From assembly GCF_003334335.1 (NCBI RefSeq), contig NZ_QOWQ01000026.1: a stretch of DNA of 64,000 nucleotides. One strand, given 5' to 3'. Both the position numbers and the translations under genes were made by a program. Positions 50,998 to 51,130 of this stretch are shown in pieces. Under the pieces are notes generated by a model. The model was not told where the DNA came from. It was given only the letters and a program-made list of their open reading frames with translations, and ran no database searches. Source of the DNA: Escherichia coli. Its GTDB lineage: Bacteria; Pseudomonadota; Gammaproteobacteria; Enterobacterales; Enterobacteriaceae. Position 1 is the first letter of the stretch, and each line of letters opens with the position of its first letter.

Positions 50998-51016
50998 TTG
51001 CAGCCTCTCATAATAA

Positions 51017-51032
51017 CTGTTATTTTATACAG
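51017..51032. promoter_or_regulatory. LexA (SOS) box upstream of yebG
   Basis: CTGTTATTTTATACAG fits CTG-N10-CAG with AT-rich core. Confidence 0.8.
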
Positions 51033-51077
51033 TATATTTCTTTTCGGTTGAGAAATCAACATCAGCAATAAAGACAC

Positions 51078-51093
51078 ACGCAAACGTTTTCGT
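51078..51093. promoter_or_regulatory. PurR operator upstream of purT
   Basis: ACGCAAACGTTTTCGT matches the PurR box ACGCAAACGTTTGCGT at 15/16 positions. Confidence 0.75.
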
Positions 51094-51130
51094 TTATACT
51101 GCGCGCGGAATTAATCAGGGGATATTCGTT

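Follow-up and report, generated by a model that had tools for sequence, protein, structure and literature searches.

A LexA box and a PurR operator on back-to-back promoters in the divergent yebG–purT spacer of Escherichia coli: known regulation recovered, with a rare one-base variant of the LexA box

In Escherichia coli the genes yebG and purT are read away from each other from a single intergenic spacer that carries motifs of two unrelated regulons, a LexA box on the side of yebG and a PurR box on the side of purT. The locus raises two questions: whether both motifs are true operators and, if they are, whether they make up a joint control region or simply two separate ones that happen to be neighbors. 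We have analyzed the spacer within a 64-kb stretch of the E. coli chromosome, called here the window. The yebG start codon is located at 50995-50997 (CAT on the plus strand) and the ATG of purT at 51131, and direct reading leaves between them the 133 bp from 50998 to 51130, the same interval that had been singled out in a previous inspection of the letters alone (hereafter the sequence-only reading). All of the 5426 complete E. coli genomes match the 900 bp around the spacer, several of them at 100% identity. Gene names were taken from the RefSeq annotation of a genome identical over the same 900 bp, in which the order of genes is yebF, yebG, purT, eda/kdgA, edd and zwf. Searches of the spacer gave no match to a structured RNA at the Rfam gathering threshold and no tRNA.

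The position of the yebG start deserves a comment. Ribosome profiling and tagging in Salmonella have revealed that YebG is made both as a full-length protein and as an internal Met17 form, the long form being about fourfold more abundant (PMC11005335), and the same pair of proteoforms in E. coli is credited there to an earlier study (reference 17 of PMC11005335). The in-frame Met17 of the window (codon 17) is found at 50947-50949. This predominance of the long form favors the annotated ATG (50997) as the principal start codon. The features of the locus are collected in Table 1.

Table 1. Coordinates of genes, promoter elements and operators at the yebG–purT spacer (positions of the window)
Feature	Position	Strand	Basis
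yebG coding sequence, 96 aa, DNA damage-inducible protein YebG	50707..50997	-	ORF and RefSeq annotation
yebG putative Shine-Dalgarno GAGAGG, 6 nt before ATG	51004..51009	-	direct reading; conserved alignment block
LexA (SOS) box, 20-mer TACTGTATAAAATAACAGTT on the yebG strand	51015..51034	-	matrix score and conservation
yebG probable -10 TATACT	51031..51036	-	consensus scan, 9/12 with TTGATT; overlaps first 4 nt of the LexA 20-mer; probable register
yebG probable -35 TTGATT, 17-nt spacer	51054..51059	-	consensus scan; moderate conservation, about 70%
purT -35 AAGACA, 18-nt spacer	51071..51076	+	scan; conserved from Escherichia through Klebsiella; agrees with Sort-Seq
PurR operator ACGCAAACGTTTTCGT, reverse complement ACGAAAACGTTTGCGT	51078..51093	+	matrix score, identity to ChIP-chip motif, conservation
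purT -10 TATACT	51095..51100	+	scan; conservation of about 90% or more in the 53 distinct spacers
G+C-rich discriminator GCGCGCGG, between purT -10 and expected start	51101..51108	+	direct reading
purT putative Shine-Dalgarno AGGGGA, 8 nt before ATG	51117..51122	+	direct reading; GG conserved
purT coding sequence, 392 aa, formate-dependent phosphoribosylglycinamide formyltransferase (GAR transformylase)	51131..52309	+	ORF and RefSeq annotation

The sequence-only reading had seen here two unrelated regulons sharing a very short spacer. The two regulons are indeed present, while the shortness did not hold. Eleven divergent spacers over the 64-kb stretch, whose lengths come from the annotation of the colinear genome of strain 005008 and are not exact measurements on the window, have 73, 78, 102, 129, 131, 133, 138, 158, 176, 316 and 337 bp, and an exceptionally short spacer was rejected on these figures, 133 bp being the median of a range of 73-337 bp. 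Nor is a shared region the same thing as joint control. The coordinates of 005008 and of the window agree from about 35.5 to about 59.5 kb and nowhere else. Apart from this, we observed that the window and 005008 (L086/L087) are colinear, with about 0.5-1% mismatches in register and small indels near 35.5 and 59.5 kb, which shift the coordinates. The 900 bp around the spacer are 100% identical despite the 0.5-1% mismatch elsewhere, a contrast suggestive of a mosaic or recombinant relationship.

We examined the LexA box with a weight matrix made from the 17 E. coli sites of Table 4 in PMC3009722, leaving yebG out, and applied it to the two strands of the window. The SOS box CTGTTATTTTATACAG does lie at 51017-51032, as had been proposed, and it is 19 nt from the yebG ATG (20 nt in the sequence-only reading). 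This stretch is the CTG-N10-CAG core, with the CTG and CAG arms both intact, and the surrounding 20-mer, 17 nt from the ATG, fits a TACTGTATATATATACAGTA-like palindrome with an A+T-rich spacer. The box reached 23.2 bits (p = 5.9e-9, E = 7.6e-4 in the 64-kb window), a value that exceeds the median of the training sites (21.8 bits, range 16.6-29.0), and the next-best LexA locus in the window was about 10 bits below it, at 13.3 bits.

In the same way, a PurR matrix was made from the 27 ChIP-chip motif sites listed in Table 1 of PMC3159470, again leaving out the gene of interest, purT, and scanning both strands. The operator ACGCAAACGTTTTCGT was found at 51078-51093 as claimed, 37 nt from the purT ATG where about 40 nt had been estimated, and 43 bp lie between the LexA 16-mer and the PurR box. 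It fits the 16-bp imperfect palindrome ACGNAAACGTTTGCNT with a central CG, in agreement with the motif given in PMC3159470. Its score, 24.6 bits (p = 2.3e-10, E = 2.9e-5 in the 64-kb window), exceeds those of all 27 training sites (12.0-23.3 bits), and the next-best PurR locus had 14.5 bits. Besides, the exact 16-mer is unique in the window and the nearest others have 3 mismatches. Neither of the two boxes gave a poor score in its weight-matrix check.

Both operators and both promoters are already documented for E. coli K-12, and the spacer is a case of known regulation, rediscovered correctly. Lomba et al., in 1997, are said to be the source for the yebG SOS box and promoter of this strain. 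The K-12 yebG box was reported among UV-induced genes, yebG being lexA-dependent and yebF under LexA control (PMC3009722), and a later study gives for yebG a 4.4-fold induction by AZT and a 9.7-fold lexA dependence (PMC11228462). For purT, the passages and table of the ChIP-chip study that deal with this gene describe a PurR peak with the motif ACGAAAACGTTTGCGT (log2 ratio of 2.00 with adenine vs. 1.02 without it) and derepression in a delta-purR strain (PMC3159470). The K-12 operator listed there (Table 1, 1,928,852-1,928,867) and in Fig. 5 of PMC6003448 is the identical 16-mer, likewise located between the -35 and the -10, so that window and K-12 do not differ in it. Sort-Seq was run on both promoters of the K-12 spacer (PMC6003448). 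At purT it detected the -35, the -10 and a repressor site between them, seen only with adenine; DNA-affinity mass spectrometry captured PurR only with hypoxanthine, and the site was gone in delta-purR. At yebG it detected the LexA and RNA polymerase sites, and mitomycin C induced the gene (PMC6003448).

We have searched for promoters with a consensus scan that covered 50600-51400 at a threshold of 9/12 or better. Exactly two sigma-70-like sites were found, one per strand and each overlapping its own operator, with the two -35 hexamers back to back, 11 bp apart. At purT, the PurR box takes 16 of the 18 positions between AAGACA and TATACT. Over an alignment of 10 species four of the six positions of this -10 were invariant and two varied (a C/A change at 51099), and the first 4-5 nt of the discriminator GCGCGCGG were conserved across genera. 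G+C-rich discriminators of this sort are a kind of sequence linked to ppGpp/DksA-sensitive promoters.

At yebG, the LexA box overlaps the predicted -10 TATACT, whose exact register is the probable one rather than a fixed one. Across the 53 distinct spacers hardly any variation was seen at 51028-51036, a stretch whose last two positions, 51035-36, are beyond the LexA 20-mer. It is the conservation of these two positions and of TTGATT that leads us to favor TATACT as the -10. A different anatomy would place the yebG -10 within the box, in one of its A+T-rich hexamers (TAAAAT at 51027-51022 or TATAAA at 51029-51024), with LexA sitting exactly on it; repression would work alike and only the anatomy would change. 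According to the Sort-Seq paper, the yebG polymerase site is shifted downstream by 9 bp from where an older computation had assigned it (PMC6003448); should that older assignment have been TTGATT/TATACT, TAAAAT, a 5/6 match to TATAAT, would be the true -10. Against this, the matching -35 position, CAACCG (51050-51045), is poor and unconserved, the scan at 9/12 or better gave the TTGATT/TATACT pair only, and the near-invariance of 51035-36 outside the 20-mer is what would be expected if TATACT were the -10. All in all we consider an in-box -10 a possibility of some weight, but a doubtful one, and keep TATACT as the probable element. No terminator-like site was found in the scan between yebG and yebF, an absence that fits yebF following the LexA control of yebG (PMC3009722).

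The box of the window is not the most common one in the species. The K-12 yebG box belongs to the same gene, has the same position and the same overlap with the promoter, and is equal at 19 of 20 bases, the difference between the K-12 20-mer TACTGTATAAAATCACAGTT and TACTGTATAAAATAACAGTT of the window being a C to A change on the yebG strand at 51021. Expressed as 16-mers, the window has CTGTTATTTTATACAG and K-12 CTGTGATTTTATACAG, with T at 51021 on the plus strand of the window, inside the A+T-rich spacer of the box. We counted alleles using 41-mers centred on 51021, so that a mismatch at the center removes the 28-nt seed. The window allele was present in 11 of the 5426 complete genomes and the K-12 allele in 4463, while the approximately 950 remaining genomes had other variants within 51014-51028, such as CTGTGATTCTATACAG and CTGTATTTTTATACAG. 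At least four alleles of the yebG box exist within E. coli. By the LexA matrix, the window allele scores 1.1 bits more than that of K-12 (23.2 vs. 22.1), and a heterology-index-style value obtained from the same 17 sites was 4.4 for the window box and 5.2 for the K-12 allele; the index published for the K-12 box is 6.3 (Courcelle 2001, as cited in PMC11228462). We infer that the one-base variant behaves like the K-12 box.

This rare one-base allele is a small novelty of the locus. In Salmonella, a natural SNP in the yebG box alters how large the yebG-ON subpopulation is (PMC8072944), and by analogy a small phenotypic effect of the window allele is conceivable. That the allele at 51021 alters LexA affinity, and with it the fraction of cells that express yebG and yebF without DNA damage, and that more broadly the yebG box is a locus of natural regulatory variation, seems to us unlikely.

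A more drastic change of the same box was observed in E. coli MS 21-1 (L082, NZ_CP146670.1, 609-2508), where an ISL3-like ISEc53 element is inserted inside it. A duplicated 8-bp target (GATTTTAT) flanks the element, which ends in inverted repeats (GGGTCTTCCCC/GGGGAAGACCC); yebG and the CTG half-site now stand on one side of it, with the CAG half-site and the -10 on the other. The element carries a ClbS/DfsB-family passenger gene. Finding a colibactin-resistance-like gene in an SOS box is curious and may be a coincidence. The PurR box is also polymorphic in E. coli at its first base (51078), which is A in the window (ACGCAAAC...) and G in some lineages (GCGCAAAC...). The respective scores are 24.6 and 22.5 bits (L083, L085 and L002).

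Other places of the window came up in the same scans. The PurR-like matches with 3 mismatches at 41233 and 47767 were rejected as chance, and so were all other LexA or PurR matrix matches, with 14.5 bits or less and E of about 0.6 or more. The runner-up of the LexA matrix, at 49932-49951, extends over the yebE start, and its 13.3 bits (E about 1) are at chance level; yebE has been described as UV-responsive and only partly LexA-dependent (PMC3009722). The other CTGT-N8-ACAG of the window, CTGTTGATTTGAACAG at 13495-13510, precedes the GTG start codon of yoaA by about 8 nt and has 7.6 bits (rank 30). An SOS-induced helicase, YoaA is known to have a weak LexA box with a heterology index of 13 (PMC11228462), and CTGTTGATTTGAACAG may be this documented box. 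Rfam matches at the gathering threshold were obtained for the overlapping SraC/RyeA and SdsR/RyeB sRNA pair (43350-43494), for a cspA-type thermoregulator on a cspC/cspE-like gene with yobF (27402-27862) and for sroD (8268-8353), all of them known features of this region of E. coli. No tRNA genes were found in the window.

To place the spacer in a wider context we carried out a PurT protein scan with one genome per species, which yielded 80 Enterobacterales loci from Escherichia, Citrobacter, Salmonella, Kosakonia, Enterobacter, Klebsiella, Buttiauxella, Erwinia, Pantoea, Yersinia and others. In 53 of the 80 yebG was divergent beside purT, with a spacer of 126-163 bp, and in the other 27 it was not. 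The PurR box was present in every purT locus (80/80, 20.2-24.6 bits), in 60 of them identical to the 16-mer of the window, and stood 32-45 nt before the purT ATG, except in Yersinia (69 nt). All 53 loci with an adjacent yebG had the LexA box (16.6-28.9 bits), and none of the 27 purT upstream regions without yebG did, the best LexA-like score in these being no higher than 9.5 bits. In Yersinia similis, where yebG is 2 kb away from purT, it has its own LexA box of 25.2 bits, 27 nt before the start codon. Since the LexA box tracks yebG and the PurR box tracks purT, each operator belongs to its own gene.

The 53 distinct spacers and the 10-species alignment display two conserved islands with unconserved sequence between them. 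One is the LexA box with the adjoining TATA (CTG..CAGTATA), and the other, AAAGACA.ACGCAAACGTTTTCGTTTATACTGCG, comprises AAAGACA, the PurR box, TATACT and GCG. Among the loci without an adjacent yebG there is a recurrent arrangement in which yebE abuts purT, found in 22 of the 80 species (22 of the 27), with yebG and yebF missing and a spacer of about 165-185 bp. These 22 loci (L015, L024, L025, L027 and 18 others), which come from Enterobacter, Kluyvera, Pantoea, Pluralibacter and others, have the PurR box intact and the LexA box absent. Leclercia (L037) has yebF without yebG.

Our analysis indicates that the spacer very probably consists of two independent sigma-70 promoters, back to back, each of them a simple-repression unit, and we have met no evidence that contradicts this. 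Sequences, scores, promoter context and conservation were computed for the window, and repressor binding and physiology come from the literature on the K-12 sequence. The roles of LexA and PurR also rest on what is well established about the SOS and purine regulons. A LexA dimer on 51015-51034 would cover the yebG -10 and the region of the transcription start and would exclude RNA polymerase. Upon DNA damage, RecA-stimulated self-cleavage of LexA would free the promoter, and yebG would be transcribed, probably together with the downstream yebF. On the other side, PurR with its corepressor, hypoxanthine or guanine, would bind 51078-51093 when purines are plentiful and, lodged in the gap between the purT -35 and -10, would block the binding of polymerase. 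Each operator would act on its own gene only.

The two halves could in principle form an integrated control region with cross-talk between the regulons, in which PurR dampens yebG, LexA dampens purT, or the polymerases compete with or stimulate each other, by way of upstream polymerase contacts or divergent supercoiling. The geometry lends itself to this: with -35 hexamers only 11 bp apart the upstream contacts of the two polymerases would overlap, and the box-to-box distance is kept at 41-45 bp in 50 of the 53 loci. This narrow range follows from the layout, since promoters and operators take up all but about 11 bp of the spacer. The sequence between the promoters is unconserved. The LexA box and yebG were lost or moved in the 27 loci, as well as in Yersinia, and the PurR box and its position remained unchanged. 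Two independent promoters predict such a gene-specific inheritance of operators and an integrated switch does not. Experiments point the same way. Sort-Seq gave direction-specific features for each promoter (PMC6003448), the passages of PMC3159470 that deal with purT, with its Table 1, name this gene among those derepressed in delta-purR and do not name yebG, and the AZT study lists purT as SspA-dependent only, not lexA-dependent (PMC11228462). We consider cross-talk very improbable and retain two separate promoters. The uvrA-ssb region of E. coli likewise has an SOS box in a short divergent spacer, but there a single LexA box is common to both directions (PMC8072944), whereas yebG and purT have a separate repressor and operator for each direction.

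The reading of one or both motifs as chance matches in A+T-rich intergenic DNA can invoke the bare CTGT-N8-ACAG, which alone is weak evidence for LexA because the window has 2 such matches where 0.67 would be expected, a number reached in 14 of 100 shuffles, but this reading is refuted by the E-values of the full matrices and by the conservation in 53/53 (LexA) and 80/80 (PurR) orthologous loci, has the published binding data against it as well, and is almost certainly wrong. For both boxes, the identity as LexA site and as PurR operator is supported by matrix score, promoter context, conservation and published experiments.

As a discovery the finding has little significance, the spacer being already a worked example in the Sort-Seq paper. 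It is useful as a positive control for motif scanners, and the rare LexA-box allele, together with the split box of MS 21-1, provides minor leads on natural variation in basal SOS expression. The comparison of the 80 loci is a clean demonstration that, across the Enterobacterales, each operator travels with its own gene. This co-inheritance of operator and gene supports modular, independent control of yebG and purT rather than a joint switch.
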